A stretch of DNA of 62,990 nt, filler included, from Hausera hauseri (GCA_046269625.1; 12 parts of 12 records of this genome joined end to end with filler, not necessarily neighbours in it), one strand, 5' to 3'. Counted from the first letter of the whole stretch, positions 10,349-38,418 are shown. Numbers and translations are program-made. The notes: generated by a model from the letters alone, not told the origin.

Positions 10349-10723
10349 ATGAGGTTAGCAGACAAAGAAGAGAGGATTAACCAGGAACAAAATCAGATAC
10401 CTACGAATGAGGAAGAAGAAGAAGGGATAAGTCAAGATAGAGTGGAAGAACAATCCTCGAAAATAACGAGCAAAGACAAGAGTGAGGAAGAAATGGAGGA
10501 AAATATGAGAGGAGCAATAAAAAGACAGCTCACAGAAGACAGCTCAAGTGAGAACGGACCAGTAGTAAAAAGGAAACATCAATCAGCAGTGAGGAGGAGG
10601 AAGAAAAAACAAAACAAAATTGATGAAGTCCAGTTAGAAGTAATACAGCAGGATGCAAACAAGATCAAAACAAAACCAAAATCTGCAAGGAAGCAATCGA
10701 GATCGGAGGAAAAGGAAACATAG
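10349..10723 (+). CDS. Low-complexity Glu/Lys/Arg-rich ORF upstream of env remnant, probably retroelement-derived
   Basis: 124-aa charged ORF with the basic cluster RRRKKK; purine-rich strand. Confidence 0.35.
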   Translation: MRLADKEERINQEQNQIPTNEEEEEGISQDRVEEQSSKITSKDKSEEEMEENMRGAIKRQLTEDSSSENGPVVKRKHQSAVRRRKKKQNKIDEVQLEVIQQDANKIKTKPKSARKQSRSEEKET

Positions 10724-10925
10724 ACGGATGAAAAGCAGAAACGAGCAGAGGAAACACGAAGTAATGCAGTAAGGAACTAGATTAAAACTGTGGAAGTCGG
10801 GAAGAGTGGATTCAATAAGCAGATCCTAGCGTTGCTGTCTAAGATGCTATGAAAAACTTTAGGAGAAGGTAACCGTATTAACGGACGAATAATGTTAGGT
10901 TATATTATTTCAAATTCGAAGACAA

Positions 10926-11450
10926 ATGGACAAGTGGATCCAGATTTTATTGTGGTCAGTGATAGGAATCACTGCAACTCTGAGCAAACAAAAAGAGATC
11001 AACATAGTAGTGAGAGACAACACAGTGTCCATAAAAGCAAAAGAAGTATCAGACATTAAAGCACATTGGAAATTAACCATCGCCACAGACATGCAACCAT
11101 ATGAGGAAGAATTAATGAATGCAACCAAACAAACGATGAACTTACACGATATCGTCGACAGAAATACGAAATGGTACAAGACGAAGGGCAATAGTCATAA
11201 TTTTAATGATCATCGTAATAGGAATAACAGTAATGAAGAATAGACACACCATCGTAAACAAAATAAACTTTGGAAAACAAAAGGAACAAAAACACCAAAG
11301 ACAAAAGAACACGTAGAATTACAAGACATAACTACAGACACCATACACTAACCAAACCGGCTAATCATGAAATTAGAACAACCACCGAAACACAAAAACA
11401 ACAATCAACCCAATTAGAGATACCTTCCTCTACCCAAGCCTGAGGTTTAC
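10926..11450 (+). pseudogene. env: Internally deleted envelope gene, probably baculovirus-F/errantivirus (class I) type
   Basis: Signal peptide MDKWIQILLWSVIGITATLS and motif AHWKLTIATDMQPYEEEL. In a shifted frame, NGTRRR-AIVIILMIIVIGITV (basic site fused to a TM helix) followed by a basic tail. Confidence 0.5.
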
Positions 11451-11578
11451 AAAAAAAAAAAAAAACAGTACAAACCCCAGGGGGGAGGAAATTTTTCGAT
11501 GATAGGAATAGACTTTGAAATTACAGTTATTTTCTTATATTTCAGATTCTATACTAATCTTGAAGAACTAAGCCAGGT

Positions 11579-12013
11579 ATGGAACAGGATCCTTGGTGGA
11601 GACGCCATAAGGATGAGGGCTTACCCGACAACTGGATAGTAGTCGAAGATCAACCAGGGTTTAGACTATTAAGTAGATTAGATGAAGACAGATACTGTAA
11701 ATGTGGACACCGGACAATAATAAAATATTTAAGAGATGAAGGGGGGCAAATGAAAAACTTTGATTTGTGTATCGATCCAGAGGGATGTGATTTCAAGGAA
11801 CCGGTAGAGTTGAAACAAGTTGAGAAGAGATGCGAACATCATCATAGACTAATGAAAAGAAAAATAGTAGATCATCCATGGCGACTGGGAGAATACACCA
11901 TACATTACGAATGTGATGGGGGAATAGAAGGGAGAAATCGAATATGCCGACAACTCGAACGTGGTATTATATGTGAACTGAAGGAACCGGACAATGAAGA
12001 GAACAAGTGGTGA
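11579..12013 (+). CDS. Intact 144-aa protein with two GRF-like zinc ribbons
   Basis: CKCG-x20-C-x5-CDF and CEH-x~24-C-x10-C. Preceded by a pyrimidine tract and TTTCAG acceptor at ~11530-11545. Confidence 0.55.
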   Translation: MEQDPWWRRHKDEGLPDNWIVVEDQPGFRLLSRLDEDRYCKCGHRTIIKYLRDEGGQMKNFDLCIDPEGCDFKEPVELKQVEKRCEHHHRLMKRKIVDHPWRLGEYTIHYECDGGIEGRNRICRQLERGIICELKEPDNEENKW

Positions 12014-13785
12014 ACATTTAGAAAGCCTTGTGAGGGAACAAAACTGTAGTAGTAATATACCGAAACGTAACTACAGGTGGATACCTTAACATACTCGCTG
12101 GGGATGGTTATATTATGTAATACTGATGGAATTCATGCTACTTACATGAATTTTTGTCTTCATTCACAACTATGATGATATTAATTATCGATATAGTTTT
12201 ATATATGATTAACTTACTTATCGGTTTAATTTTCAGCCTATGTGTTTATGAATTTTTACAAACTTTATGTGTTTATGCCAATATATAAAAGAGAAATAGT
12301 ATGAGCTACGTATGGAGATGACATGTGGCACATGAGGACTTAGGGACTAACTCCATAAAAGTCGGTTACATGGCGTGTGAATACAGAGCCTCCACATAAC
12401 CGATGCGCAGAGTAGTGAAAAATGCTGCCAGAAGTGATGCATAAACAGGGTCCGTCACTCAAGAAATGGGTGATATTCATCATAATTGCTATTATTAGAA
12501 AAAAAGTACATGTTCACACATTAGAAATTTTGCATGCTCTTAGGTAGTTCACAAGTCATTGGTTATGACAATCTGGATCGAAATTGTGAATGTAAATTGA
12601 ATTTTTTTAATAAGTATTATATAAACTGTGTGGGAAAGACAACGTATAGCGTGGTTGACTTGTAGGTTCAAGATCTCAGATGATGATAACTTGATTGACA
12701 ATTATCAGACTGACAATTATCATGTGTAATCTGGAGGACTTTTAGATTTTGACAGAAGGAAAAGGAGAAAACCTGAGCAGAGGATGTATCGTATCCACAT
12801 GAAGAATTAATCTGAGAATCAATAAGGGATTCTGTTATTCTAACATTACATAGGACGATCAATCCCAACAGAGTGTGAAATTCATCAGCAACGGGGATGA
12901 GCGGTCGCTAGAGACGGTACCAAAATTACACATTTTATTTGTACATGACCATATATCATACTTATGCTATGTTAAAGGATTGATGTTTTGATTTTTGTTG
13001 TTTGAAATTTTGATGACATAATGGGTTATGAATTCACAACGTGATACCTAATCGATTTTCGTTTCCATTTACTTTGTTTATGATAAATTAACATGGGGCG
13101 AAATTAGACACGAGATGAGGAAATGAATGTCCGAAGTCACCAATTAAACACTGAAGCAAAATGAAAGAGTCATTACAGCCAACTCAAAAAAAAAAAAGTC
13201 TACATTCCAGTGACTCATGGTCACGAATCAGATAGAAGATGTCGAAAACTCCAATTTTTTTTTACTATGATACACAGATCATTACAAGCCTGAGTGGATG
13301 AGCATTATTGAATTATTTCTGTTGCCATTGATTTTTGCTATATAATTGACATGTGTTTTATATGTATAACGTTGGATTGTTGAAGATTAAGATATGTTTT
13401 TTTAGGACGTGACATAAATTTGTGAATTATGCTTTTGATTAATGAGACTGACATAGAACTTTGACATTGTAAGGACAGGAATAAGGCTATGAGTGGAAAC
13501 AATAGGTAGAAATGTAAACCACATGGATGTAACATGACGAGTAGAAGACTTTAACCAATTATAAGTCTCCTTAAGGAAGGGTGGGATATGTAGTAGTATC
13601 GATGTGGAAACCAATTAAATTATTTAAAAATTTAATTTAAAAACTCAAACCTAAAGTCAGAAATACAGCGAGGAAAGCACAGAAGAATGGATAAAGGAAA
13701 ACCATACGATTTAATGGGACTGAAATATATAAGGGACAGTTAGTTACAATCTAACTAAAAATAGCTCCGATTAACTATAACAGAA

Positions 13786-14705: not shown

Positions 14706-17700
14706 GATGATGTGTTTAGGTGAGCCGAATCGGCTGAGCCATATGCGTATAAAGGCATCAGCTATGGACTCAGTGTTTGTGGATCGAAGTGGAACTGCTT
14801 CTGGCCATCTAGACGCGCGGTCCATCATTACAAGGATGAATTGATGACCGTTGTCTGGTGGAAGAGGGCCAACAATATCGAGATGGACAGTATCAAAGCG
14901 TGACGTACAGGGGAAATGATAAGGTAGCGGCTTTAGGTGTTTAGTGATTTTGAATTTTTGGCATGCCGCACAATCCTTAACCCATGACTGTACGTCTGTT
15001 TTCATTGACGGCCATGTAACTTCGGCTTTTAAGTGGTAATATGTAGCCTTTGATCCTGGATGGTGTAAGGCGTGAATATTTGTAAGAGCTATTTTTGGAG
15101 AGAAGAAACTAATATGATTTTAGGCTATGCAGGGTTGGTGGTATGGAAGGCCACGCCATCACTGATTTTAAAAGATTTATAAGAAGTGAGAGTTTCAGCA
15201 TCCGGTTGATTTCGTCGAAGAGTCTCATTATCTGGAATTGGTTTAAATGTTATACAGTCAACTGAACGTGACAAAAAATCAGCTATTACATTGCTATGCC
15301 ATTTATATGTTTTATTGTAAAATTGAAAGTTGACAAATAGGATATATGTCTTTTCTGACGTAGAGAGGGAGATTTCATGGTAAAGATGTGCAGCAGCGGC
15401 TTATGGTCCGTTTGAATTGTGAAGGTGCGCGCTGTTAGAAGGTGCCTAAATGCTTGACTGCGAGGACCATTGCTAAAGGTTCTCTATAGAAGGTTGAGTA
15501 CTTTTGTTCTGTTGTAGTAAATTTTCTAGAGAAGAACTCTAAAGGTTGATGTGCATTGTTTTTAAATTGGTGAAGTACTGCGCCTGCTGCGATAGTTGAT
15601 GCGTCTGTTGTAAGAAAAAGTTCTGATGTAGAATCTGGATAGGCTAATATTTTCATTGTTTTGTGATTTGCTTTTAGGTGTTCGAAAGCATTAACAAGTT
15701 CAGGCGTTTAAATAATAGGTTATTTCTTTTGGCCAAAATTTAAGGTAGCGAATGGAGCGGTTTAGGTTGAACAATGTGACACCGATTTGTGGACAAAATG
15801 CAAGGTGCCAAGGAAGGAACGCATTTCTGAAGTTGTATGTGGTAATTAAATGTTTTTCAGTTGAGTGATGCGGTCTTACTATGGAGCGTGTCCAGTTGGA
15901 GTAATAATGTGTCCAAGGAAATTGATTTTTTGTTTAAAAAGGAACATGTGCGAAGTTTATTTGGAGATTGTTTTGGTGAAGTCATTTGAAAACGATGCGT
16001 AGGTGCTCAGTATGCTGTTTAGAGGATGAGGAGGCAATGAAAATATCGTCGATGTAGGGATATGCGAAGTCTAGGTCTGCGAGGACCGTGTATATGTGCC
16101 TCTAAAAGGTTTGGGCTGCACTGCGTAAGCCAAGTGTAATGAATAGATATTAAAAAAGTCCAAAAGGAGTTGTAACTGCCGTTTTTGGAATGTCTGCTGG
16201 TGCTACAGGGATTTGGTGGTATGCCTTATAGAGATTGATGTTTAAGAAAATGGTGGAGGCATGAAGTCTATGTAGGATGTCATTGATTAGATGCAGAGGG
16301 TAGGCGTCCATGGTTGTGATTAGATTCAGTTGCTTGTAGTCACCGCATGGGCGAAATGATCCGTACTTTTTGGGGCAACATGTAATGGCGAAGCCCATGG
16401 AGATTTAGATCTTTTGATGATGCCTAAGCGTTGTAGTTCTGAAAATTCGGGTTCGACTGCCCGCCTGCGACGTGGGGATAATTGTCGTACCTTTTGTCGT
16501 ATTGGTCTTCGGTGTTCTGTAACGATATAATGAAAAGTATGCATGGCTGGTTTAAAAGTTTTGTCTTTCTGCAACAAATGAGTGCACGAAGAAAATACAT
16601 AGGATTGCAATTTGCGTGGAAGTGATGATAAGGCGGTTGACGGTGATGATGATATTGCGATTTGCCTGGCGTCAGTTAGAGAAGCAGTTGTATTATGAGA
16701 ACTAGGCGGAATTTGGTGCAATATGGTGGAACTGAAAATTGTGTTGCGGGAGGTTTTGTTAGCAAAAGGTGCCAAAAAGTTGGCACTGTCATATTTTTTA
16801 ACTGTATTATAGTAGTCGCTGAATAAGGGATGATTGTAATAATACTTTAAATTAATATGTGATTTTTTAAGAGCAGGTTTATGGTCAGTGATCGTCCGCT
16901 CGGTCGTCGAAATGATATTCACTGAGTTAGATTGTTCGAATTGATTTGAGTTAAGCAAGCAGCAACGTCTGCAATCCACCAGTAGTTGGTAATGGGATAG
17001 AAAGTCTGATCCCAATATAGGTGTTTGTACATTGGCAACTGTGAATGTCCAATTGTATGTCTTTTTGCTGCCTGGCAATGTAAAGGTGATGTTGATAATG
17101 CCAAAGGTATTTAGTTATGCCCCTGATGCAGTGAATAATTTTTTGTGTAAATTTGTTTTGTTATGCATTTGATGTTCAGTAGGAAGTAGAGAGGCAGCTG
17201 CTCCAGTGTTTATGAGGAAATTAATGTTTTGTTTTGTTGGAGTAACGACGGTTGCATCAAACGTAAAAAACTGCAAATGTTGTGCTTCGGCTGTCATTTT
17301 GTAAAGTGGAGCCTTTGCTAGAGGCGGCCGATGACTCTAGCGGCGTTATTAGTTTTTTAGCTGTGTTTGATTTTGTTTGTTAGTTGAGGGTCGCCTATTC
17401 TCATGCGAGTAGGAATTGCATCGTGGTAAACATCTTATGGCTTTAGTGTTGAATTTAGAATGATAGATGCAAATGTTGTTGCCGGACTTAAATTTAGGTG
17501 TAAAGAATTTGCACCCAATGCAACATTTGTGTGTGTTGTTTTCGATATTGTTATGATAATAACAAATAGACGATCGTACGGGCGATGGCAATCGTCTGTT
17601 GTGCAGTGGAGATTTATCGGAATGGGTGGCACCCGGAAATTTTGTCTGGAGAAGGTCAGTTGGCTCAACTTATTGTTCATACTGTTAATGGTTTCTAGCA

Positions 17701-18745
17701 GTGCCTTGTTGTCAGCCTTTAATTGAGTTATTTGTTGTTGTAATGCGTTTTGCTGTGTATCGTTTGGTGTGATGATGGTAGAGATAAGTGAGGTAGTGTG
17801 CATTTTGAATAATTCATATGATTTATCAGCTAACTCGCTTAGTTTGTTAAGATATAATGATTCCTCAACAACGGTTAACGGGCCCCTCATTTGTAAAGGT
17901 AAAGCGTGGAGAAAATAGCGTCTTAGGCGATCTGCGTTGTGTTCCTGTGTTACACCGAGTGCCTTTAAGTTCTTAAGGGCTATTTGTAAGAATTCGGAGG
18001 GCTTTTGATTGCTTAGGGTGTTCTCGTTGAAGTAACGTTGAATAATAGAATCCAAGGAAGGCTCTGTAAGCCTAAGAACGGCGTTATGTAGCTCCTTGTA
18101 AGGATCAGGATATTCGAAGAGTTGTAAAAGATTAGGTATTCGAGTTTTGACTGAATTTGGTAGATAGTAAAAGAGGCTATGGGCTTTTGAGAGAGATTCG
18201 TTGATGTTTGCAGATGTGATGGAATTGAAGCCAGGTTTGTCTTGAGTTCTGATTGTCGATGAAGAATTCGGTACATTGGTGTCCGAAAGGGAGACCGGGA
18301 GGTGTGACTGTACCGGCGCAGCGTAATATTGGAATAGATTTTGGCTTTTCCGTAGTGTCAGTGGAGGATGGGGAGTTCATGCCGCCGAGGATTTTAAAGT
18401 TGATATGAATAAGAAAAAAAGTCTGTCTGAAGTGAAGAAGATCGTAGAAGTTGTGGATGGTGAGACCGTTGTAGGATAAGAAAAAACTAGAGGAACCTAG
18501 CAGGTTGACAAGGTGGTGGTAGATGCGTGTTGGGTCTAGTGTGTCCTTTTATATGTATGTATATGTTTTTGTTGTTGATTAAAAAATGAAGAGAAAGATA
18601 GGGGGTATGGGCGACGGATGGGCACTGCGGCGCGTGACGTAAACACGCCCGGCGTCCGGACGGCGCCGGCGTGGCGATCTCTGGGCGGCCGAACCTCCGT
18701 AACCAGGTCCGGCAGCTGCCCGACGGTCTTTGCGGTGAAAGGTGT
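14706..18745 (-). mobile_element. Decayed Ty3/gypsy LTR retrotransposon, CsRn1-like clade (gag-PR-RT-RH-IN)
   Basis: Gag with CHCC boxes; protease FLINTGAAASLLP (D to N); RT WASPLH, RPCGDYKQLN, KAYHQIP, YIDD; RNase H TDAS; integrase VHLDIVGPLP. Confidence 0.93.
17317..17358 (-). promoter_or_regulatory. gag-pol -1 ribosomal frameshift signal
   Basis: In-frame A AAA AAC immediately before the gag TAA, followed by the stem GCTAGAG...CTCTAGC. Confidence 0.75.
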
Positions 18746-19426: not shown

Positions 19427-19904
19427 NNNNNNNNNNNNNNNNNNNNNNNNNNNNNNNNNNNNNNNNNNNNTTAATTAATTAANNNNNNNNNNNNNNNNNN
19501 NNNNNNNNNNNNNNNNNNNNNNNNNNATAGTAAACTATACCGGACTCCAAGGCGACATACTGTCCGAAAAAGAAAGATTAATATATAATATAGCACGGAC
19601 CATGAAAACTTCGAGATTTAAATTATCTAAAAGCACCCTCCCGGACAAAACAGTGATTGACAGAATTATGGCAGATAATACAACGGAAGAATTAAGGAAA
19701 GTTTTGATATATTTGGCGGTAAGAACCAACCCCCACCGAGAAAACGAATTTGAAAAGACAATTGGATTGGCTAGAAAAGCTGCGAGAAGAATAACTAAAG
19801 AAGTAAAGTGGACTAAATTTTTTGAAAAAGAGGAAAATGTAAAAGGGACTAATAAGTTAGAAGATATGATACGAAATATCTCTTTAAATAGAGGCAATGA
19901 ATCC

Positions 19905-22024
19905 AATTGGTTAGTCAATCTACTAACAATAATGATGCTAGTGAAACAGCTAGGAGCAGTCACTATCTACGACTGTGATAAATTCAAGATGGGTCAAAGA
20001 TATTGTCTAATGGATCTGGAAGCGTGTGAAGATACCAGACCACACAAGTTAGAAACAAGAGAGAGAAATTACTTCTTGTACCAGCAACAAGAACTGATAT
20101 CGCTAGACGGAATGGAATGCATGTTGCGACGATCTCGCAGTATTTTTCACTGTGAATTAATGCACGGACATTCTTCAATAATCAAACCAACGATCCCTCC
20201 AATTCCCATGAACTTGGTACGGCAGCACTGCAAACAGGCTAAAGAGACTGGAAGAGTACATTGGGACAATATGGAATTAGAAATGCAAGCGGACAAAATA
20301 ATTAGGGCGTACAAAGTTGTAGCCGGAAGGTTAGACATGCACAATGGACACTGTAGTGGAGCTGAATACGATACTGGTAAGGGATTAGAACCAAACGCAG
20401 TAGTTGTGGATTTCTACGAATCGGAAATGCGATCACAAAAGGTAATGTTTCATAGCGTCACCAAGTTATATACGGAACACCAAAAATGTCATTTACAAGA
20501 TGGAACCTGTGCTTTTATGAGCTCGGTTACAATATGGGAACCGCCCTCAGGAAGAAGTTGTAAGTTTATTAAAATTAAAAAACTACAGTTTAATGAGACC
20601 ACCGGCAAGCGATACGTGGATAAATTGGATACCAACTCAAGGACGCACGAGGCTGTATTAGAACATCCTACGCCCATCATATTAATCTCACGTTGTGATG
20701 TGGTAATGTTTGCTACTAACTACGAAGAGTTCTTCGTAGCCGAAACTGAGATAAATGCGAGGACTTATAAGTTGGAAACACAAGATATCAGGATTGAGGA
20801 CTATCTAAAGAATAGAAACGATTATTTTTATTACAAAGGACAAACTGGAATAACTGAGTTATACCACAAAATGATAACGAACGACTGTAAATTGGATACT
20901 GAGATCATTAGGACAAAACTGGCTCTTATATATGCCAATCCAGAATCGGCTTCTCCAATAATTCCTATGATAGAGGGAATCTTTGGTCGAGTTACAGGCG
21001 AAGTATGACTAACTTACTAATGTGAAAAGAGAGATGTACCCATAAATGTAGAAGAGAAACGCTGCATCCAAAACACTCCTAGACTAGCTACACCATTGAT
21101 GAGAGTATTATTGGATAATGCAACCCAACTTACTATTCTTAAAGATTGTAAAGCGAGCTTAGCAGAGCCCATGTTTAGGCCTAGTGAGACAGAATGGGTC
21201 AGTTTACCGAATGGAGGTATTACTGCCACCTCATACAAATTAACATAAACAAATCTGGCGAAAGGAATTACGGACGACAAATTTCAGGACACTTCATCGA
21301 AAGGCATATATAGGCCTAAAGAGATTAAAGCCTTTAGACAATTCCTCGCTTTTTTACGACAACGAACGCATGAATTAAACCGAGCCATGGCCTCTGTGGT
21401 AGACGATACCTAATATCAGGCTAAGTGGGAATCTCTACTTGGCGCTAATAACTACCAAAGAGTAACTTCGGAAATATTGTATAAGATTTGAGGAAGATTT
21501 TTAATTTTCGGAAAGCTGCATCTGGATTTTTAGCCATCTACTTCTTAGTCCAGTTAGTTAAGGCCGTCTTACAAGCTATCATTAACGGATACGAAATATT
21601 CACATTAACCAGATTCTCCTGTAAGGTTTTAACTGCAAGTATTATACCCTTTGGGAAAATGCTCAAGGCCTACGAGGAAAATCAATGGAAAAATGATGTA
21701 AAACGCCATGTTGGATACTATAATCGCAAGCGACGAGGAAAACCTTCGATATTGTATAAACGTAAAAATAAGACAACAGTAACACGCAGGGATGATTCAG
21801 ATGATGACGAGCCTAAGGGAAGAGATGTGAATTGCAGAATGAAGATGCGCAAGATGTATTCAGTAATTAACGCGCCATTACCTATAATGCGGCCAACAGC
21901 ACCAATATATGAAGACTGTGACCGCAAATCAATCGTATCATGTCGGTCGGAAATCTATCAAAAACCGTCTAATTACGAAGATCCTTATGAAAAAACAAAA
22001 CAATATGGAGACTACGGAAAATAA
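19905..22024 (+). pseudogene. env: Chuvirus-like / gB-type class III fusion glycoprotein with internal signal peptide, TM anchor and cytoplasmic tail
   Basis: Ordered motifs YDC, CMLRRSRSIFHC..HGHSS, AGRLD..GHCSG, C..DGTC..TIW, C..D..I..KL..NP, GEV..Y.C, GIY, W(TGA)GRFLIFG and a TM (FLAIYFLVQLVKAVL) match chuviral G. Several stops after 21008 and a frameshift near 21512. Confidence 0.85.
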
Positions 22025-22029
22025 ATGTT

Positions 22030-24758
22030 ATGTACCAAGGACCAACAGAAAACGACCACGGAATATTGTACTCAAAAAGGATACCGCGCCACATAGAATC
22101 GGAATCAACAATCTGGGGGAACCCGAAACTGTGTTCGATCTCAAGTTCACTACCCCAGGAGCCGCTCATTGACAGTCGCGTTATTGAAATAATAAATAAC
22201 AATTTGTATCCGAATGGAGAATTAAGACAATTAAGGCAAGATATCATTTTATCGCCAGAAATAAAGATAAACGGACACAGAGTCTCTACTATAAAACGGT
22301 CCAAGATAGTGTCAAATTGCTACGGAACAGTAGCAGAAGGGAGACCTTTCGCTAACATACACATCGAAGATAGGGAAGTGTATGCGTTAATCGACACAGG
22401 ATCAGAAAAATCATTTATAAAATATGAATCGATACCAACCACATTTGGGCAAGTATCGAAGCCGAAATTTAAATGGACTCGTACCGTTTATCTAATGGGC
22501 CGAGCACTTCAACGTGAATTCGAGGTAATGGACCAGTTGTCAGACAATGTAGTACTAGGTTGTGATATATCAAAACAGATACCAGGTATGGCAATCGATG
22601 TCCATAACGGAAAATTAATTGAGCTGGAACCAATTAATAGGACAAAAATAATAAAGGAAAGGAAATCGGGCGAAGTATGGATTCCAGTAGATGAGGACAT
22701 CCCTCCCAGAACTGAAATGATAATTTTTGCGCAGATTCTTTAGGACGAAGATCTACCAGTACATTTTGAACCTCAAGAGAATATCGATCCAAATCTCATG
22801 ATTAGCAATATTCTATGTAGAATAGTGATGGGACAAATGCCTATCAGATTAGTGAACAATGCACCAACTACCGTACGATTGCATGCTAACACTACTCTAG
22901 GTCACACTTGTAGAGTATGGGCAATAACAATAGAAGAAAAACCATACAAATGCACAGAATTTCCACCTCACGTCGAAACCAAATTCTCTCCGGAAGAGTA
23001 TTGCAAGTTCTACGAATTATTATGTAAATACAGTTCGATAATCGCACAAAATGAAGAAGATATAGGTAGAGCAAAATCTTTAAGGTTAACAATTCCATTA
23101 AGGAAGAAACCCGGCTCAAATGACAAGATTGATCTAGAAGAACAGAAAATGCCCAAGTGGTACCAGCCTCCTCATTCATTGAGACCGGAGATAACTAAGG
23201 AAGTAGAGCGGATGTTGAAGGCCGATATAATTTGACCAATCTACCGATCGTGATACTCTTCTATACTTATGGTTAAAAAGAAAGAAACTAAAAAACATAG
23301 GTTTTGTATAGATTATCGGGCATTAAACACGTTGATGAAGAAAGACTCCTTTCCCCTACCGTCAGTAAAGGAAGCTTTAGACAGACTATAAGGAGCAAAA
23401 TGGTTTACCACTCTCGATTTACAATTGGGATACTGGCAGGTGGAAATCGAAGAAAAAGATCGATATAAGGCAGCGTTCAAAACACACGATGGCGTATACG
23501 AATTTAATGTTATGCCTTTCGTCATCACCACAGGACTAGCTATTTTTACTAGAATGATGAATAAGATGCTCATGGGACTTGATCATTCTTTTGCGTACTT
23601 AGACGACGTGATGATAGCATCAAATACGGAGGAGGAACACTTAAAGGATATTGAAGATACCCTCATGCGACTAGAACAAGCGAGTTTGAAACTAAATCCA
23701 AAGAAATGTAAATGGGCACAAAATGCAGTATCGTATCTCGGACACATAGTTGGAGAAGGAGAATCAAAACCGGACAAATCTCTACTAAATAAGATATCCG
23801 ATTACATGGAGCCGCAGAATCAAAAGAAATTAAGACATTGGTTAGGCCTATGTGGATATTATGCCACTTACGTACCAAACAATTCAAAAATTAACGCGTC
23901 ACTATATTGCCTACTCAAAAAAGGAATTAAGTGGAGATGGACGGAAGTGGAGCAAATAGTCTTCGATGAAATGAAGAAAGTTTTGACAAGTGAACCAGTT
24001 TTAAGATACCTGGATTTTAACCTGCCATTCATGATTAAAACAGATGCAAGTAAAGAAGGCATAAGATACGAATTAGCTCAAAAACGAGAAGGCGAAGAAC
24101 TGAAACATCCAATAGCTTATGGTGGACGCTCGTTAAAGAAAGCAGAAAAGAATTATTTAGTTACCGAATTAGAAACGCTAGCCGTTAAGGAAGCACTACG
24201 ACACTTTAACGTCTATGTCTACAGACAAAAGATCATAATACTAACCGACCACAAAGCTGTTACGACATTAAAAGGACGAGCTAATAACCCAACATGTAGA
24301 TTAAACAGTTAGATCGAGGAAATCTCACGATATAACATTGAATTTCAATACAAACCGCGGTAATAAACACGTCGACACCGACGCACTGTCAAGGTTAAAG
24401 ACAAAAACGAGTGCAATAACCACACTAAAGAAACCATAACTCGAACAGCTGATCGAACGACAAAGAACTCTGATATCGGATAAGACAATTAGAATTACAG
24501 CAGAGAAAGCTAAAGACACAGTTATTCAGCAAATTATCGAGTTCGTCAAAACAACAAAACGCCAAAAGGACGGCAACTGAAAAGCATCTACAGAAACACG
24601 GACATAAATATCGCGCATCAAACCAAGATAACACCCTGTATTACGAATGGAAAGGAAAAAGATTAATAGCCATTCCAAAATATTACGCACCGAAGTACTC
24701 ATGGCTGAACATGACTTGTATTTAGCTGGACACATGTCTTGGAAGAAGACATTGGAAA
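22030..24758 (+). pseudogene. pol: Pol: aspartic protease, RT, RNase H, integrase N-terminus
   Basis: ALIDTGS at 22393; [19 protein letters not shown] at 23596; IKTDAS, ELETLA, TDH, DALSR; EHDLYLAGHMSWKKT. Mostly one frame with stops. Confidence 0.95.
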
Positions 24759-25029: not shown

Positions 25030-27810
25030 AAATGATTAGGGTAGGTATGACATGTCACCATGTATAATTTTACAAAAGAAATCCTGACTTAGCCGGACGA
25101 AATGATTTTGAGCGGATCTTATTGTTTCATCACTCAGCGTACTGTCCAAGTAGGTTATTTCGAAAGTGCGCGTATTGTAGTGCCAAAAAGTGTGTCTGCA
25201 AGTGCTCAATTCGTGGTAGTAGACGACGTGTTGCGCCACCCGAGTAATACGAACGGGAGGATGGTCGTTGAATTCGCATGAGTTTCAGCAAGGATTTTTA
25301 TGAAAATTTTTAATGTCCTGTGGAAACGCACCAGCAAACCGTTCGACTGGGATAGTACGGAGTTGTGTGGATATGGCTTATGCCCAATCAATTAACTAAA
25401 GTTTGAATAAGCTCGATTGGAATTGGGGGCCTTAATCTGTTATAATATATTGTGGCGAACCGAACCCGCTAATCCAAATCATTATAAAAGCATCGGCGAT
25501 GGAGTCCGTATTAGTGGAGCGAAGAGAAATGGCCTCAGACCAACGATATGCACGGTCCGTCATTGTTAGAACGAATTGATGGCCGTTATCAGATGGTAAA
25601 GGACCGACAATGTCTAAATGGACGGAATCGAAGTGGGACGTACAGGGGAAATGAAATAATTGTTGCTTAATATGTCCGACAACCTTAAATTTTTGGTAAG
25701 CCACACATTGCCCAATCAAGCCCTTACGTCAGATCTCATCTATGGTCATGTTACACGGAGTTTAATGAGGTGAAATATAGCCTCCAAACCTGGGTGATGC
25801 AAAAAGTGAACGTAGTTAAAGGCTATTTGTTGAAGAGTTGGTGCTAAAATCGGTAAGTGATTCCTCGGTTTCGAAGTGTCCAATGCTACGCTATCGATGA
25901 TTTTGACTGATTTATATTGGTTTAGTATATCTACATTATAGTATATATATCTATTTAGTATATCTGGTCGGAGGGCTGTGAATTAGTTGTTCCTTAGGAA
26001 AAATTGACGAAACACTTTTCGCACCAACCGACCAAGACAAAGAATCAGCAATTAGATTTTTAGTACCAGAATTATGGCAAATTTTAAAAATAAAAGTTGA
26101 AAAATATGAAATATGGCCTTCCTGCCGAAGTAATGGATGTTTCCCGCTTATTACGTGAACAAGAGGAGTGTAGTACGTTTTAATGGTAAAAGACTGATCG
26201 ATGAGAAGGTGTGAAAAATGCTTAAGTGCTAAAATGATGTCTAACAATTCTCCATCAAACGTGGAATAGCTGCGTTCTTGTGGCTCTAATTTCCGTGAGA
26301 AAAACTCGAGTGGTTCATTTGTTTCTTCGTATGTTTGATGAAGAATTGCTCTGACTGCTGCTGTTGATGCATCGGTTATAAGTATGAGATCAGCATCAGG
26401 TCTGCGATAGGTTAGGACCTCAACTGTTTTCAGGCTGTTACCGAACTCATCAAATTCATTTACCAGGCTTGGTGTCCAGTGTAAGGGTTGTTTCGTTTTG
26501 CCTGCTCCTAGTTAAGCGAAAGCAGCAGTTAACTGATTACAATGTGGAACGTATTTATGGATAAAGTGCAAAGTTAAAAGGAAACTGCGCGTGTCTGTAG
26601 ACGTTTCTGAACTGTTGTACTCTATTAGAATGTGGACTGTGCCCGTCAGGTATGATTATGTGCTCGAGAAAGTTCACTTCTTTTAAAAAAATGAGCATTT
26701 TGCGAAGTTGACTTGCTAGGTGTTATTGTGCAATCGTTGGAAAAGTAGTTTAAGATGTTCTTCGCGTTGCTTTGGCGAAGTTGATGCGACCAGAATATCG
26801 TCGATGTATGGGTATGCAAGTGCTAAACCGGAAAGGATAGAGTCAATGTACCGCTGAAAGGTTTGAGCTGCAGTTTTGAAACCGAATGGAATTTACGTGT
26901 ATTCAAAAAGACCGAAAGGCGTGATTATGGCTGTTTTTTATGTCATCCAGCACCACTGCTATCTGGTAGTAAGCCTTTTCAAGATCGATGGTTGAATATA
27001 TGGTGGTACTGTGAAGTTAGTGTAAGATATTTTTTATTAATGGTAATTGATATGCGTCTATGGTAGTAACATTATTAAGTTGGTAGTAGTCGCCACATAG
27101 ACGGAATGTGCCATCCTTTTTTAAAACCACATGAAATGGTGATATTTAAAGCGATTTAGAAAGGTATATGACTCCAGCTTGTTCGAGAGAAGAGAATTCT
27201 GCTTGTACTACTGGTTGACGGCGTGGTGAAAGTGGTCGGAATTTTTGTCTAATGTGTCTAAGATTTTTAGTGGTGATATGGTGAAATGTTGTACTACCTG
27301 GTCGGAATGTTGAGTCTTTTTCAATGGTGTAAAAGCAAAACTTGGTTATGTATTTTTGGATACGGTGGTGAATTGTAGAACAAGCCGCAGCAGATATTGA
27401 GCTCCAAAAATCATCTTTGTCAAAGTTTTTTGTTTGATCGTTATTATAATTCGATTGAAATATAAAATTATTCGACATCGTATTATCAGAATTCGTATTT
27501 ATTTTGATAAAGGATGATAAGGTTTTAATACTGATTTGACGAACTATGCAGGTTGTGCAACCGGTGGCGCATTATTTGTACACGTTGCATTTTTTGAATT
27601 ATTAACGATCAGACATTGCCTGCAGTCAACAAGGAAGTTGTAAAAAGGGAGGAAATCTGAATCAAGTATGGGTGATTGTGCATCAGCTACGATAAAGGTC
27701 CAAATGAAGGTGTCGGGAAAAGATTATAATATAAAAGAAATTTTTGAAGTGCCTAAGGGGCGTAAAGCTTGACCTTTAGCAGTATATAGCTAGGTAGTAG
27801 ATGGGTAGGT
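25030..27810 (-). mobile_element. pol: Second decayed CsRn1-like Ty3/gypsy pol
   Basis: Collinear with 14706-17300: HIRQKFRPLSPRRQ, YIDD, TDAS, LEFFSRK, VHLDIVGPLPSDNGHQF, QSNGLLVRFHRTLK. Confidence 0.9.
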
Positions 27811-28911: not shown

Positions 28912-30095
28912 TTGATTGAACCAAATATAGAAAGGAATCCAATGTCTAGCTTTGGAATAGGAACTGGCTCAAGTACAACTGGTACAATGATACTTCCGAT
29001 GGGTAAGTTCGAAGGAAAACCGGACCAAGATAATAATAAGTTTTTAGTGCAATACCAAATGTATTCACAAAATTTACATGGTCAAATGAGCTCAGGATAC
29101 AACGTCTTCCCTTACATCTTAAAGGAATAGCACTTGGTGCTTATGCTCAGCTTACGGATGATGATAAGGCTGATTGGGCTAGCCTTAAGGATGCCCTGGA
29201 AGAAAGACTCTTAGTAGACCCATCGGGAAAAGGTCGAATAAGAGAGTTTAACAGGCGACGACAAAGGAAAGGCGAAACAGTGCAAGAGTTTGCATGTGCC
29301 CTTCAAAAGCTGGCTCAAAGAGCTTACACAGATGTTGATATAAGGGAAGATGCCCTCCTAGCTCAATTTTGGCTATGGGGTTAACAGGGAAATTCAAAAT
29401 TATATTATTGTTGCTGACCCTGACACTTATAAAGAAGCTATTAGTAAAGCTAGAAAAATTGAGTTAAACTATGAAAGATTGGAAAATACTAAAAAGCCTC
29501 CTAAAACGATGACAGAAAGTTAAAAAATTTTCAGTCGAAGAAAAATTCCCAAAAGCCGTCTTATAAAGTCCAGAATCAAATAGAACAACAGCCGAAAAAG
29601 GTTACGTAACAAGAGATCAACCTCAAAAATCTGCGATGAAGAATCCAACGGTTAACCAGAATGGACAACCATTATCTTTCGCTTGTCAAAAATACGGACA
29701 TATGGCTCGCTTTTGTCCTAACCAAGGATAGTTAAGTCAGAAGAAGAAAAACGTTGATATAGTAGGCAATATATCTGATACGGATAATGAACACGTAACT
29801 ACAGATATAGAACTTAAAGAAACAACTGAAAAGCTACAGTTGAAGATGAAATCTAAATTAAAAGAAGGCAAAACCAATACAGTAGAAGATGAAGATAAGA
29901 CAGCCGAATTAAAACATCTGTACCTTGAATTAAAGGAACAACAAACTTGCGAGAGAAGACAGAAAATGAATGATGAAAGTTCAGTCATTGCTCCTATAGG
30001 TAGACCCAAAAAGACTCCTACATCAGGATCAGATACCAAAAAGAAAAGGGCCAAGAAAATGGATAAACCTTTGATACAAGAAAAAGAATTGAAGA
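28912..30095 (+). pseudogene. gag: Ty3/gypsy Gag (CA and zinc knuckle) plus start of a downstream charged region; relative of the gag at 30.5 kb
   Basis: KFEGKPDQD, RLPLHLKGIALGAY, RRQRKGETVQEFA, knuckle VNQNGQPLSFACQKYGHMARFCP (compare VNRNGNLVCFTCGKGHISRSCP). Confidence 0.85.
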
Positions 30096-30373
30096 NNNNN
30101 NNNNNNNNNNNNNNNNNNNNNNNNNNNNNNNNNNNNNNNTTAATTAATTAANNNNNNNNNNNNNNNNNNNNNNNNNNNNNNNNNNNNNNNNNNNNTCTAC
30201 AAATTTTATTTATTTCTTTCATATTATTTTTTCATTTCCAACATATGGTTTTATTTCTAAATCAATATATTTTTATGCAGCAACTGTGAAAACACTAATA
30301 AAAAAATAATTTTGCAACCACCAATGTCTAATATTAACAGAATATATTTATAATTGAAAGATTTATGCAACTT

Positions 30374-30433
30374 AGGTGCTATTTACAAACCACTATAGCG
30401 CTATTTACAAACCACTATAGTGCTATTTACAAC
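30374..30433. repeat. 22-bp tandem repeat, ~2.6 copies
   Basis: gctatttacaaaccactatag(c/t) repeated. Confidence 0.8.
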
Positions 30434-30499
30434 AGTTAAAACGAAAATTAAATGGGGTATATAAGGCTATTGAACGGGGATAAGTAACGCAACCTTTAA

Positions 30500-31770
30500 T
30501 CCAGAACAAGCATTGATAAGTCAAAAGCAAACCGTGTATTAAATGATAATTCACCTATACGTGAGACACGTCGAAACATATCTAGAGATATACAAAAAGT
30601 AGATAAACGTTCAAATTCAGAGAATAGAACCAAATTTGACGTTACCGAGCAGAATAAGCAATTTAAAATTCCACTTGAGAAGCATAGAATAACGAAACCA
30701 AATTTAGAGATAAATAACGTAAATAATTTGGCAGCAGATGACCCACCAGTAGCGCAGAAAATGGACATCTTTACCTTTGACTCTCTGAACTTGCCGGCAT
30801 ACGATGGCGACCCGGACGGGCTTAACGAATTCTTGAGAACTTATAAATTGCACACAGAAGTGCTAGTCTCACTCCTGAGGTAATGATTAAACGCTTGTCA
30901 TTATATTTGAAAAATGTAGCCGCTGACGCTTATAGTGAGCTCACAAATGATGAGAAAAAATCCTGGTCCTCCTTGGTAGGAGCATTAAACAGTAAATTAT
31001 TACCGACCGTAACTCCGCAGCAGAAGCTTATGGCGTTTCAGAATAGAGTACAACGAAAGGGTGAATCAGTAACCCAATTCGCATTTGCGTTGAAGAAGCT
31101 TGTAATAGTTATATAAACACACTACGTATAGCCAACGTAGCTAGAGCCAAAACGGATGCGGAACGCGAGGCCGCAGAAAAGGCAACACCACCAGATCTAG
31201 ATGTCATGATGACGACTCAATTAATCTATGATATTTGGTCACGAGATTTGGTTAAACAATTAATTTTGGCTAGACCTGAAAACTTTGAAGGAACTCTACA
31301 GTTAGCTCAAGATTTAGAAATGGCACTCGACAGATATGCCAGACACAACGATAGAAACAACAGAAATAATTATCGAAGTGATCGTAACGACAGAAATCGG
31401 AATGATAATCGTGGAAGAGAAGATAGACGATTTACGGGTATTAAAAATTATGGGAATCGAAATAATCATAGCAGTTACAGAAATGGCGGAGGTAATAATT
31501 ATACTAATACGAAGAGATCATATTTTAACTGGAATAGGACTAGAGGAAATTATAAAGGCTCAAACTACTCGAATCAAAACGGCGATAACCAAAATAATGA
31601 TAATCGACAAAATGCAGGTAACGCGCAAAGTTTGTCAAATCAGTATAATAAAAGTATGAACAGATCTAAGTCACCTGTGAACGAAGATGGTCGACAAAGA
31701 GTCAACAGAAATGGGAATTTAGTTTGTTTTACTTGCGGAAAAGGACACATTTCAAGATCATGTCCAAACC
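30500..31770 (+). pseudogene. gag: Ty3/gypsy Gag (capsid, Asn/Arg-rich linker, CCHC-type knuckle)
   Basis: LPAYDGDPDGLNEFL, RLSLYLKNVAADAY, RVQRKGESVTQFAFAL, CFTCGKGHISRSC at 31725-31763. Confidence 0.88.
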
Positions 31771-34708
31771 CACGTAGCGTTTCATTTACTAAGCCGAACA
31801 AGACTAGTATGATCAGAACTAACGAAAATTTAGAAGCAAAGTATGGGGTTCGCGGTGATACAGGCACTATCATTGACATACAAGATTTACGGTGGTTTCT
31901 AGACGCTCAGCCTAAATCCAATAACCCACAAATTTTGATGGCTAGAAAAGAATACAGAGATAAGCTGAGACTACTAGAGGTATATCATGGTATAGTAGAA
32001 CCAGAAACTGACTATGAGCATGCGATTTCCCCTAAGCGAATTTATATGACACGGAAAAAGAGTGTTCCGACAAGTAATAAACCATCTGATAAGCCAGGCA
32101 CATCGACAGAAGTCGACTTAGATGCAGAGCCTGAGCTCACAGTTGAAAAGATAGAGAAGCCCACGAATGACGATGCAGCAGAAAAAGAATGTATGCAACC
32201 ATTAATACTTAAAATTACCAAAAATAGAGGCCGTAGCCCTTCATTAAAAACAAAACGTAGAAGCCGTTCACGTTCAGAAGTAACTAGAGCGAAAATAGCA
32301 GAAATGAAGGATACGAGCATCTCGGTAGGAAGCGACGTAGCACAAAACTTAGAAACACCAGAAGTCGGCCCATTTACACCTATCGAAGTGAGAGAACCTA
32401 AAGAGTTAGTCAATGAAATTAACGAGATTTGTCCACTTCCCATTAGTGAGGAAGAAACGGTAAATACCGACTATTCTGATCCAAAGAAGTGGAAAGTCCT
32501 ACGCTCATGGAAAAATGCCGATGAGCTAAAGGAAATGAGAGTTAGATGTCACGATCCAGAAATACTACAGCAAAATTTGGAAAGACTTAGACAGATTAGC
32601 CAGCAAGTAGATATATCTGGAAAAGAACAGCAGTATGCTGAGAGACTATATAAAAGTTTGAAATTATATAGTGAAGGGAAACTTACAGAAGCAATCGACT
32701 TAGGACAATCGGAAGATGTATCACCTCAAACATTGTCAAAATGGGAGCATGAGTTAGAATCATGGATTAAAAGAGGAGTAGAATTTTCGGAAGGATGGAG
32801 CCAAATAGAAGATAGTGTCGACGCAAAAGTCACTAAAGCTCAGACGCTATTGTCAACCTTAGAAGCAAACCCAAAATTAAAGAGTGTGGTCCGAAATTTA
32901 GAACGTATGATGGATGAAATTCGTCACGCAATAATTAATCGGCTTAGGGAAAAACCGGTTAACCATCGAAGTAATATCAATTTAGAAATATTGGGCATAG
33001 ACCCTATATATATTCCCCCTTTGACGGCGATGATAAAAATCACCTTTGGTGTACCCAAACAATATACAAACCTAGAAAATTGAATTAAGATAGAAAGTGA
33101 AAGGCGAGCGCAGATTTATAGTTTGAGAAACCGGATTATGTTTCCAAACAACGAAGAAAACAAAGTACGTAGTAAAAGCTTGTATCATAGAATTTGATGA
33201 ACATAAGGACGAGTTTAGCTATGTCGGCTGGATTATGGATTTCCTAAGAGGGCCGGACGATGAGTTGAAAGATGCATGTAAGATGCTAGATAAGACTATA
33301 ATGACAAAGCCAATAATCTCAAATCAGTTGTCGGAATGGTTTGAATTAGTAATATGGTTAAGCAATTTAGTGGGAAGTCGTAAGAAAGAATTCCAAGAGA
33401 GCGAGCTTTCTGTAAAGAAATAGTTAGAAGAAAGCGCGCGCAATTTAGACACAGTACTAACATAAATCGACATCGAACGCGATTTGAAGCATTACGACGA
33501 CTCAATTTTATGAAAAAGAAACAAGAAGCGACGATTCTGGAAGAGATATGTAAAATGGTCGAAGAGACGAATTTTACAGAAAAGCTGAATATGACTTGCA
33601 ATTTTTATCCAAGATTGAGAAATGTCCGATTAGAAGGAGTTCAACATTTAACAGAGAAACCTATTGACGAGATCTCTGTCCAAGACATCGAAACCTTAGA
33701 CATTTGTCCGGAACACCGAGCCACTTTGACGTACACGATAAAATTTTAGCACAAGCCACAAGAATAGATGGCCGGATCAGATCAGAATTTCCATACCGAG
33801 TTGATAAAGATAAGAAACGATCAACATCTTAGTGTTCAATAATCTAAGTTCGTAAAGAAATTGCTGGATGCAATAGATCCAGACTCAAAAGCCTACTTAT
33901 TGGTATCAATGGCAGAAATTAATGACGAAAGGATGAGACAACTGATGCAAAAATTACAGCAAGTCGAAGAGACGTACATCAGAACAAAACAAAGAGCATC
34001 TAGGCTAGATGAACTGGCAAAAGAATTCGAAATTTACCGAAACAAATATGCGTTATCGAATCAGAGATTAAAAATAAACGAGAATTCGTATAAAGATGGC
34101 AAAAGATGTAATTATTTAATTAACATATTATCACCAAAAAGGACTCATCGAGTCTAACAAATTCGGCGAATTACTGAAAATGATTCGATGTGACTGTGGA
34201 AACGGAATAGGGTTCCGAATTGCACAGATGAAGGAAATACAATCAAGACTAAAAAAAATTACGGAAAACGTGAAACGAACAAATACAGCCTTGGTAGACT
34301 ATGGACTTCCAGACGACGGAAACGAACCCGAATGGGATGCATACTTTGTCGCGATACTTGCCGAAAAGCTTATGACTCCAGTACAACTAAATGAGATAGA
34401 AATATGTCTGCAGAACAGGAGATTCAATGTGGTGATACTTCTGGATTCGGCGCTAGCTGAAAAGAGTTAATCGAATTAATTAACGTAAACATTACTGGAA
34501 GTAAGTTAAGACAACTTATTCCAACATTAACTAAATTATCCAGTAAGAATAGGATTTATAGCACGGTGCCGAAACTTTTGATTAGGAAATACGCTAAATT
34601 CTTAAGGGCTAAACCAGAAGTAGCGATAAAAATATTGGTAACATCCGAATGGATGGAGGAAAAAGAATGTGAGCTAACTACATATTTCTACGGAAAAGAT
34701 GTAAGAGA
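31771..34708 (+). pseudogene. Gag-fused ~1000-aa unknown region X (copy 1), ending in the N-half of a ubiquitin-like domain
   Basis: In frame with the knuckle in ORF 31206-33083. Collinear with 49479-52217 (RSWKNADELK.MR.RCHDPE, GPDDELKDA, QDIETLDI, LVDYGLPD.GNEPEWDAY, SEWM.EKECELTTY). Confidence 0.85.
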
Positions 34709-34929
34709 NNNNNNNNNNNNNNNNNNNNNNNNNNNNNNNNNNNNNNNNNNNNTTAATTAATTAANNNNNNNNNNNNNNNNNNNNNNNNNNNNNNNNNNNN
34801 NNNNNNNNTAAGAAATTGGACTGCAACCAAATTTAACCCTTTAAATAGAAAATCTTTCAATTGTTTGGTATAGAAAGTGGTTTCCCTCTATGCTCTACTC
34901 CTCAGCTTTATTCTTCTGATTACGATACC

Positions 34930-35124
34930 TCATAAACAGGTGTGGGGAGATGTTTCGGGGAGGCAGGTTCCATGTTGAAGTGAAGCAGTGCATTTATGAT
35001 GAACACAGAGGTACCAGATATGTGCACCTGCATTATAGTTACGTGGAGCAATTCTATTTGGATTATAGAGTTTTTGATTTGAAGTACGCACATGCCTGTT
35101 TAAATAATCCAAATGAATAAACAT
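34930..35124 (-). other. Possible FLYWCH/WRKY-type zinc finger fragment
   Basis: IWYLCVHHKCTASL...PHTC gives C-x4-C ... H-x-C. No transposase core seen. Confidence 0.3.
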
Positions 35125-35934
35125 CCATCATGAAGTAGCTTGAGTTGACACCTAGATGTTTTAAAATAGATGTTTTCTTTACTTTTCAGCATATTATCAT
35201 TATTTATCTTCTAGTTGATTTATTAACAAACTTTAATGGATTTTCTTAATGAAATTGGGTAGCGAGAGGGCTTAACTAACAAGATCGATGTTTATTTTTT
35301 GTAAGATCTTCAACTATAGTTTGTCGAATCGTTTTTTTCGGAAGAATGTTTATTCGATATTTTTACGTGGTGCTTCCAATAAGTAATGAGCCCAATTTGG
35401 AAGTATATTTTCGAATAATGTCAGAATTTACGTGCAGCATTTGGATTTAGGAAGTCTTTTGCAGAATATTCTAAAGATGTATGAAATTCTGCTGTTCCTC
35501 TATGTCTCATAATTAAGATGGGAGTCTTAAGAGTTGAAATTTTCATGCGAAGAGTGTTCAAAGAAATAACGGATACTCACTATGTTTGGGAATACTTATA
35601 TCATACTCGTCGATTTTAAGTCATATTGCAATTGATTCATCATTTGGCCTTTTTATAAGAACTAGCTGAAATTGATATTTTCTTATCTCTTGTATAAATT
35701 GTCAAAACTTCGTTTGTCGCAACAATAATTATTGAAAGTAAAATATATATCAGTGATTTCTAACTGCTTAAGCCTAAATGATCATTATAGAATATTAAAT
35801 ATTTATAAAAATAATACAAATAATTTGGTCTTCTTTACATAGTATAGAGTTACCTTGTGTTATAAAGAGAGCTGAGAATCACAAATTGTATATATGTACA
35901 GTAAGAATAATAAGTACATTCTGACATGTATAAA

Positions 35935-36760
35935 TAGATTAACCCATTTTGTCGAACTGATGGCATTAGTGGACCAAAAAGCGTAGACTGGCAGAAGCCG
36001 TAGTAAGGAAAATCATCTGCAGATACGAACCTCCTGAACAAATTCTGACAGATCGAGGAAGGAACTTTACGAGTGAATTATTCGAAGGGATTACCAAAAT
36101 ATTTGAGATTGAACGATTAACCGCAACTGCTTACCACCTGCAATGTAACGGAATGGTCGAACGGATGAACGCAACCGTTATACGAATCTTATCAATAGTA
36201 GTTGCGAAAGACCAGAAGGATTGGGATGAATTCTTAGAGGGTACACAGTTTGACATAAACACTACATCACATCCCTCAACAGGATTTACTCCATTTTTAT
36301 GATGTATGGTAGAGACGCTGTACTACCCACGGACTTATGAATAATACCATATACAGTAAAAACGGATAATCTAATACTAAACTTTGTTAAATTGTTGCAG
36401 ACGGGATTACGCAAACGATGGGATATAGCCAAAGAATTGTCCAAAAAATATCAAGAGCAATTTAAAAGGCAATATGATAATAACGCTATACCATATGATT
36501 TGGAGAAAGGAAACTGGGTTTATGTGCATTATCTGGTTGCGAAGAAAGACAAATCTTTAAAACTAACCCGAACTGGCAGAGGACCTTATAAAATTATTAG
36601 AACCACACCAACTAAAGTCTATATTAATAAAAATGGCAAAGAGGTCGTATCCATACAAAGAGTGGTCAAAACGGAAATAAGGCCAAATAAACGATATAAT
36701 CTGCGTTCGACTGAGAAAAATCCAAGTCAAACCAAGAAAGAAAAGAAAACGTCATCGATA
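35935..36760 (+). pseudogene. pol: Ty3/gypsy integrase core and GPY/F C-terminus
   Basis: PEQILTDRGRNFTSELF, TAYHLQCNGMVERMN, QKDWD, STGFTPF..YGRD, RGPYKII, RYNLRS. Confidence 0.93.
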
Positions 36761-37910
36761 GTAACTAGACCGATATCATGTGCACAAATAATTCTTGAAC
36801 TATCGCTAATCGCTTCATATATACCAAGTGAAAAAACACAATGAATACTGTGTTTAGTAGAATATAACCACGGAGTTATGCCATATTTCGCAACTGAAAA
36901 AGAACAACATGCAGGAAGACGGCAAGACATACAGAATTTACAGTTGCTCAGAGTCTACGATATGAATTCAATAAAACACTGCGCCTGGTTTAAGACAAGC
37001 GAATCTGTTAAGAACAATGTAAAATTTCAGATTATATTTGTGGATCAAACAAGTTCTAGGATGAAGACATGTGATTTTCCATATGGACCCTATCAGAAAT
37101 GTTGCGATTTAGATTTCGGACGAACATATTAATATAAATTTTAGACGTTCTATTATAATCTGCCTGGAGCCCAAGCCTATATAACTACCGAATTGGAAAT
37201 ACAAATGCCTCAAGGTAACGACACAAGTTAAGCCAAGACAGATGATATAGTCCGAAATACCGATCCATTTAAGAGACTCTTAGATTATAGCATTATTGTG
37301 AACTCCAAAGACTTTGAAAACCAATGTATTCGAATTAAGAACAAAATAGAGTTGCATGGAGATAGACGAATTTCCATCCGATTCACAACGACACATAAAT
37401 CAACCCCTCCTGTGAAATATTGTTATATTGCGCGAGAACAACAAAATCCGGGCTGCAGGATATCTTTGGATTATGAATACCAAATGCAATTTGATTTGTA
37501 CAATACATACCCGAACGAACCGAGTACTTATTTAATAGTATATCGTCCAAAAGTCGGAATATGGAAGATTTCCTTCCCAACAACTACAAGAAAACCGTCT
37601 ACCATTCCAAGTACGACTCGCACCACTAATATTAATACTTCGAGTAAAATGACCGATAGAGAATTGGAAAACATACATGTTAAAATTTTGGCGCGACATA
37701 ATAGAATTGTATTTTATGTTGAAAAAACAGTGGATTATGAAATTAAAATCGAATGTCGTAACTTACATACCAACAAAATTGTAATCTTAAGGAAGAATAG
37801 TCAGAAAATCGAACGTAAATCTCTACGATGACAAAATGAGCATATAATTCAAATGACCGCAATGGTAAGAGACATAAAACTCTTACAGTACAAAGTCTTA
37901 ACAACGAAGT
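36761..37910 (+). pseudogene. In-frame post-integrase extension: signal-like segment, beta-rich Cys-containing (FN3-like) domains, Thr/Pro linker
   Basis: ORFs at 36392, 36878 and 37298 share one frame. AQIILELSLIASYIPS; KTCDFPYGPYQKCCDLDFGRTY; PTTTRKPSTIPSTTRTT. Confidence 0.6.
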
Positions 37911-38370: not shown

Positions 38371-38418
38371 AGATAAATAAACCGATGAACAAGGTTGCCT
38401 TATTTTAGATTTAAATTT

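Follow-up and report, generated by a model that had tools for sequence, protein, structure and literature searches.

The window, by which we mean the whole 62,990-nucleotide stretch of Hausera hauseri DNA that was analysed, comprises 12 unrelated contigs with N44-TTAATTAATTAA-N44 linkers between them. The contig of interest (19527-24758) carries an envelope gene followed by a polymerase gene, and two others (30196-34708 and 49303-53354) carry related sequence; contig size is 4-5 kb, and all features described below lie on the plus strand. Every gene of contig 19527-24758 is broken by stops and frameshifts. Its frame 1 has no stop between the contig start at 19527 and position 21005, and the first 127 codons (19527-19907) form the C-terminal end of a cargo region, here called X, a helical domain that continues in frame and without a stop into env and shares 57% amino acid identity with 52673-52980. 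A putative internal signal, recognised by eye as a hydrophobic stretch before a conserved YDC motif (19908-19958), precedes the ectodomain (19959-21510), which is interrupted by stops at 21006, 21018, 21246, 21411 and 21489 and by a frameshift near 21.5 kb. The remainder of the gene (21518-22024) encodes a transmembrane (TM) helix (~21518-21583) and a cytoplasmic tail of ~145 residues that includes a PTAP motif (21893-21904) and terminates at the stop codon 22022-22024. The first-pass annotation of this DNA had called the env complete, which is accurate for its extent from signal to tail but not for its integrity, given the five stops and the frameshift.

Profile and structural comparisons support the assignment of Env to the class III, gB-like glycoproteins, the type that had been proposed from the sequence. 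The PF24664 (Monjiviricetes_fusion) profile matches 19527-21005 (E 1.8e-26) as well as the TM/tail frame at 21485-22021 (E 4.3e-7), and likeness to chuvirus G was judged through this profile only. An AlphaFold (AF2) model of the ectodomain, for which the premature stops were read as X and the sequence was aligned with 99 homologues, has a pLDDT of 86.5 and a long central helix; used as a Foldseek query it found herpesvirus gB in 44 of the 44 matches listed (best E 1.3e-10, TM-scores 0.19-0.46). A profile of 100 Env homologues matches herpes gB weakly (best E 6e-4); a single-sequence PDB search with Env gave no matches.

The pol frame (21991-24354) is offset by -1 relative to the env tail and comprises a leader of ~115 codons, a protease (PR) with its DTG at 22393, a spacer, a reverse transcriptase (RT) with YLDD near 23596 and RNase H (RH). 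Premature stops lie at about 22741, 23233, 23251, 23389 and 24310, followed by frameshifts after 24350. Profile matches were obtained to RVP protease (E 3e-5), RVT_1 (E 7.6e-26) and RT_RNaseH (E 2.3e-25) and also to PF17917 and PF17919, and the contig ends within the start of an integrase (IN) H2C2 zinc domain (24632-24757; profile match 24677-24757, E 2.7e-4, covering positions 3-28 of the 59 in the model). The order PR-RT-RH-IN is that of the Metaviridae, with only the start of the integrase inside the contig. The best PDB match of the RT-RH segment is Ty3 RT (E 1.6e-52), with caulimovirus at 6.6e-41 and foamy virus/MLV at 1e-17, in a comparison that left out a BEL/Pao reference; this supports the earlier assignment of the polymerase to Ty3/gypsy (Metaviridae). 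The accompanying statement that env lies directly before protease, RT, RNase H and integrase is borne out for the first three enzymes, but the integrase is present only as the start of its zinc domain and pol itself is broken. Mosquito BEL/Pao elements with a chuvirus glycoprotein, reportedly described by Dezordi in 2020, are said to combine a BEL/Pao polymerase with an env located after pol; their Env is of the same family type as the one described here, whereas the polymerase is different.

The ten best Env matches are 30-33% identical to the window Env. Among 20 Env homologues scanned, five combine Env with RT in a single protein (P0004, P0005, P0013, P0014, P0020) and five more contain Env and protease, while Env is likewise joined to RT in P0153 and P0168; most of these Env-Pol relatives are gene predictions and could be spliced. 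A knuckle or gag match precedes Env in three of the 20 (P0007, P0011, P0018), and gag lies 5' of env in the single relatives P0007, P0010, P0011, P0014 and P0018. At the DNA level, L001 is one uninterrupted frame of 3,426 codons encoding Env-PR-RT-RH-IN, with 27% identity to the window in Env and 36% in Pol. Searches for related loci returned 0 of 204 candidates with a single query, and 1 of 592 metagenomic, 0 of 19 viral and 0 of 100 prokaryotic candidates with an alignment query. A five-relative profile of a post-integrase FN3 membrane protein reached a best E of 0.55 against 1,077 window frames, a weak test because leave-one-out runs recovered only 2 of 6 slices at E<0.01; a BLASTP comparison with L001 likewise gave no match.

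Two sequencing runs (X1, which may be the source sample, and X2) contain thousands of pieces that are 80-99% similar to contig 19527-24758 over its whole length, with 19,106 and 1,720 contig pieces placed, respectively, and 30 of 30 bins covered. The family is present in high copy number, and the copies described here are dead or decayed. Contig pieces from other copies bridge the junction between the env tail and pol, the long bridging pieces carrying 1-4 private gaps. The env stop and the protease are separated by ~310 nt of open pol-frame leader, in which neither an LTR nor gag was found, these being the signs of two elements that the first-pass annotation had singled out together with loss of the junction in other copies; repeats of at least 40 nt are likewise absent between env and protease. 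Nested or tandem insertion of two separate elements, or integration of a chuvirus-like glycoprotein gene beside an ordinary gypsy element, would account for the different frames of env and pol, for the many free-standing PF24664 proteins of ~650 aa, and for the behaviour of the window RT, a long branch (1.88) that in one of two trees (shorter alignment, LG+G4) falls outside the env clade and beside P0221 (SH-aLRT 89). In the other tree (mixture model, longer alignment) a branch with SH-aLRT 92 separates the window, seven env-bearing rows and P0164 from the remaining sequences. Against two elements stand the open and repeat-free leader, the bridging of the junction by other copies, the single frame of L001 and the identity of the nearest Env homologues, which are retroelement Env-Pol proteins, the free-standing PF24664 proteins being more distant; we regard such a dual origin as scarcely credible and treat env and pol as parts of one element.

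In the element contig and in most contigs of other copies a stop codon terminates Env, and pol follows in the -1 frame. In most copy contigs the env stop codon is preserved as a stop and overlaps a pol-frame AUG, an overlap that can arise by chance. A canonical slippery heptamer in phase with env was not apparent when the env-pol junction was inspected by eye, and in a search for a frameshift-stimulating structure the junction folded no better than shuffles (z +1.1). The offset might also reflect decay of a single copy within a family whose Env and Pol are fused in one frame, like those of Burro and L001. Seven relatives and L001 do join Env to Pol, the window copy has many lesions, and a Tyr-Pro motif that stands before the protease in the fused relatives is found in the pol leader of the element contig. 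However, no tail/leader indel recurs at a 5% threshold in 2,619 and 257 pieces, and the stretch from the env break to the protease is likewise free of recurrent indels apart from a locally compensating cluster in one or two contigs. Because the env stop persists and no recurrent indel is present, separate env and pol frames are probably a trait of the family, and decay from a fused arrangement is unlikely.

The 5' half of the family is represented by the two other contigs. A frameshifted gag of a paralogous copy (30500-31775) is recognised by profile matches to capsid and one CCHC knuckle, including Retrotrans_gag at 30847-31113 (E 6e-4). An open reading frame (31065-33083) joins the end of the capsid, the knuckle (E 0.052) and the first ~440 codons of X, and the fusion of Gag to X reported earlier for 30500-34708 is therefore present, but in a gag that is itself frameshifted. 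By comparison between copies, 31776-34708 comprises the first ~980 codons of X, low-complexity and then helical, broken after 33081 and devoid of Pfam matches at E<=0.02. The third copy (X at 49471-53056) contains a weak ubiquitin-like stretch (~52234-52350, E 0.11) at the place expected from the relatives, as well as a pre-signal helical domain (52583-53056). Its X runs in frame into env, as had been read from 49479-53354, and the signal and ectodomain start that follow (53057-53354) are frameshifted and 80-85% identical at the amino acid level to 19896-20193. Coordinate arithmetic gives X a length of ~1,250 codons. Mismatches between the window copies of X are distributed over the codon positions as 150:122:298 and 44:28:103, and no block of at least 45 nt contains a stop common to the X copies. 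X bears the mark of codon-level selection, and the third-position bias together with the lack of a shared stop implies that one open frame formerly led from the nucleocapsid (NC) through X into Env; NC and X share a frame in 31065-33083, and X and Env do so in two copies.

A search with the Gag-X ORF found no X homologue among 8,000 candidates, and X has no match to 18 relatives; an atlas search with 51582-52226 gave a best value of 0.89 to an unrelated family, which was rejected. The knuckle-to-signal span of the relatives varies widely, from ~200 to 580 aa in six of them. Five relatives have a Bcl-2-like BH2 motif directly before the Env signal, and the corresponding domain matches Pfam in two (E 9.6e-4 and 0.055) and Bcl-xL at E 0.016. 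The pre-signal helical domain of the window occupies the same position; a Bcl-2 identity for it found no support in profile comparison (E 1.7), hhalign (probability 0.15%), a single-sequence fold (pLDDT 41.8) or a PDB profile search, and no literature was found on Burro1 with anti-apoptotic cargo or on planarian Bcl-2.

Contig 49303-53354 overlaps 19527-24758 by 645 bp at 69% nucleotide identity, and 30196-34708 overlaps 49303-53354 by 2,321 bp at 75%. Since the overlaps are only 69% and 75% identical, the three contigs are diverged paralogs rather than one copy, and a single Gag-X-Env-Pol molecule is consequently not seen; no contig or read spanning gag to pol was found, nor any LTR in the contigs, which end inside the element. 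The protein-level overlaps used in the first-pass annotation to tile about 10 kb of coding sequence do exist, and the coordinates sum to ~9.9 kb before the integrase core, but the pieces belong to different, diverged copies. Were the gag-X contigs derived from sister subfamilies with different 5' halves, the tile would be a composite that never existed. The modest nucleotide identities would fit, as would the wide variation of X length and content among the relatives and the shuffling of cargo that PMC6431247 describes for Burro-like elements. The overlaps are nevertheless collinear over 0.65-2.3 kb, with 60-85% amino acid identity and third-position bias, and for this reason the order gag-X-env applies to the family regardless of differences in length; a composite is quite improbable. 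The three contigs very probably represent decayed copies of one Ty3/gypsy family with a gB-type env directly before PR-RT-RH, and we infer a likely gag-X-env-pol arrangement, the layout of Burro and of the GAG-ENV-POL errantiviruses.

Burro/GYPSM1, giant gypsy elements of planarians with sizes over 25 kb, carry an Env that lies between gag and pol, in frame and behind Ubl/Bcl-2 cargo (Arkhipova and Yushenova 2019, PMC6431247; Grohme 2018 and Jurka 2007 as cited there). Compared by description, not by Burro sequence, with that account, the family shares with Burro a CCHC-knuckle Gag, long cargo, a weakly Ubl-like stretch, a mononegavirus-type Env probably in frame after gag, the succession of PR, spacer, RT, RH and IN after Env, and a high copy number; its copies are decaying, as is reported for Dugesia japonica. 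Unlike Burro, it shows one knuckle instead of two or three, X yielded neither MATH, BIR or ankyrin domains nor a Bcl-2 match, and Env and Pol lie in separate frames rather than in the same polyprotein. Because of the stop after the Env tail and the -1 pol frame, we file the element as 'Burro-like' and not as Burro. Our literature search on gag-env-pol retrotransposons yielded PMC13524379 only (Chary and Hayashi, eLife 2026), which describes GAG-ENV-POL errantiviruses of the HSV/gB type from Nematoda, Bryozoa and Platyhelminthes, the copy numbers of some of them reaching the hundreds. Those elements likewise combine a Ty3/gypsy pol with a gB-fold Env that has a signal and TM helix and an env immediately 5' of pol, and by eye the window Env is like the Schmidtea C1a rows given there in its start (a Y-x-YQ motif and the cysteines after it) and unlike the one bryozoan row compared, a likeness that at ~27-30% identity to relatives does not name the host; the published elements are intact, whereas the window copies are dead. 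Nor is it new for env and pol to occupy separate frames, since the search in that paper allowed up to 2 kb between the two genes, and it also cites non-canonical nematode ERVs whose Env and pol are flipped in order (Sacco et al. 2022).

The novelty implied by the first-pass annotation thus falls away, the layout having been published in both accounts (PMC6431247, PMC13524379). The divergence of the lineage (27% Env identity to L001), the Env stop with its -1 pol and the late-domain-like motifs are small additions. That the family forms a deep, undescribed gag-env-pol branch, with cargo twice as long as that of the relatives found, Pol uncoupled from Gag-X-Env and ESCRT late domains in the Env tail instead of Gag, is a tentative reading on the doubtful side. 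With this divergent high-copy family, an already published class of invertebrate retroelements with envelopes gains a member; the layout of the class is confirmed independently and its general picture is unchanged. Questions at the level of the class concern the processing of a membrane-spanning Gag-Env(-Pol) polyprotein, particle formation and the role of the Ubl/Bcl-2 cargo, and testable handles are offered by the late-domain-like motifs in the Env tails and by Env-Pol being fused in some elements and separate in others.

The description of the element as enveloped and virus-like was drawn from its genes, and the copies here are dead; the following scheme would apply to the family when Gag, X and Env were still one reading frame. 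Translation would then yield a membrane-spanning Gag-X-Env precursor, with Gag-X in the cytoplasm and the ectodomain of Env directed by the internal signal into the ER lumen, where signal peptidase would free the Env N-terminus; the TM helix would stop transfer and leave the tail in the cytoplasm. In contrast to most relatives found, in which Env and Pol are fused, Pol might be made at a lower level, either by stop-start reinitiation or by -1 frameshifting. Cleavage by the retroviral protease would then set free the capsid, the nucleocapsid, the domains of X and the enzymes. PTAP in the Env tail may recruit ESCRT for budding, after which a gB-like trimer could fuse the particles with other cells and RT and IN would copy and insert the genome.

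Late-domain motifs bind TSG101, NEDD4 and ALIX. Among the matches listed in a literature search there was no errantivirus paper on late domains, and the main text of PMC13524379 makes no mention of late domain, ESCRT, fused, fibronectin, frameshift or polyprotein. With a motif set chosen post hoc, after the sequences had been seen, P[TS]AP, PPxY or YPxL occurs in the Env tails of 6 of 13 relatives (15 tried, 2 skipped), although Tyr-Pro could be a protease site. The tails, which are related to each other, hold nine such motifs against 0.76 expected in shuffles, none of 2,000 shuffles reaching as high a number, and the motifs are 20 times denser there than in the rest of the same proteins.

A second type-I membrane protein, comprising a signal peptide, an FN3-like region and a transmembrane (TM) helix, follows the integrase in P0004, P0005, P0153, P0159 and P0164, all related proteins found by homology, and in L001 (2-10282), a related DNA locus with an intact Env-PR-RT-RH-IN frame. 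The top Atlas match of this protein in P0164 is fn3 at 0.91. A long TM-bearing extension occurs in just three of the 61 other Pol matches with an integrase motif, two of these three belonging to the same clade as these relatives. By eye, L001 appears to contain a further unit of the signal-FN3-TM type between Env and Pol. In the window, an integrase core and C-terminus (35900-37830, plus strand) has its nearest matches among the env-bearing relatives (37-46% amino acid identity) and continues in frame into a decayed extension of approximately 330 codons, part of which is rich in Thr. This extension occupies the place of the signal-FN3-TM protein in the relatives, and comparison with that protein, by a profile of low sensitivity and by BLASTP to L001, gave no match. 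Integrase and extension reside on contig 34809-39875, separate from the contig (19527-24758) that carries Env directly before protease.

P0005 (HBK71150.1), an Env-Pol polyprotein of the gag-env-pol class, carries a Flavobacteriaceae MAG annotation, and its source is probably animal DNA binned into that MAG. Downstream in L001, a separate ORF (10617-12107) matches RNase_T/DEDDh exonucleases (E 1.4e-5). The end of the Env tail in the window (21900-22021, plus strand) bears the tyrosine motifs IYED, IYQK, NYED, PYEK and QYGD, which may be sorting or phosphorylation sites.

A decayed gag with knuckle (28945-30095, plus strand) is 66-83% identical to P0011, a relative with the domain order Gag-Ubl-Bcl-2-Env, and represents a second gag-env-type family in the genome of the window. 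Two other decayed gypsy gag-pol copies on the minus strand (14706-18400 and 25200-27570) share 67-69% nucleotide identity with each other, and no env match was seen in either.

The window further includes several unassigned ORFs (789-5166) preceding two RING-finger-like stretches (5170-6570, plus strand), a Helitron_like_N fragment (39497-39784, plus strand; E 4.9e-5) and an intact coiled-coil ORF of 643 codons with three 45-nt repeats (42479-44410, plus strand), for which a Pfam search returned no match. A diverged tandem repeat array of approximately 4 kb with strong C skew spans 53455-57530.
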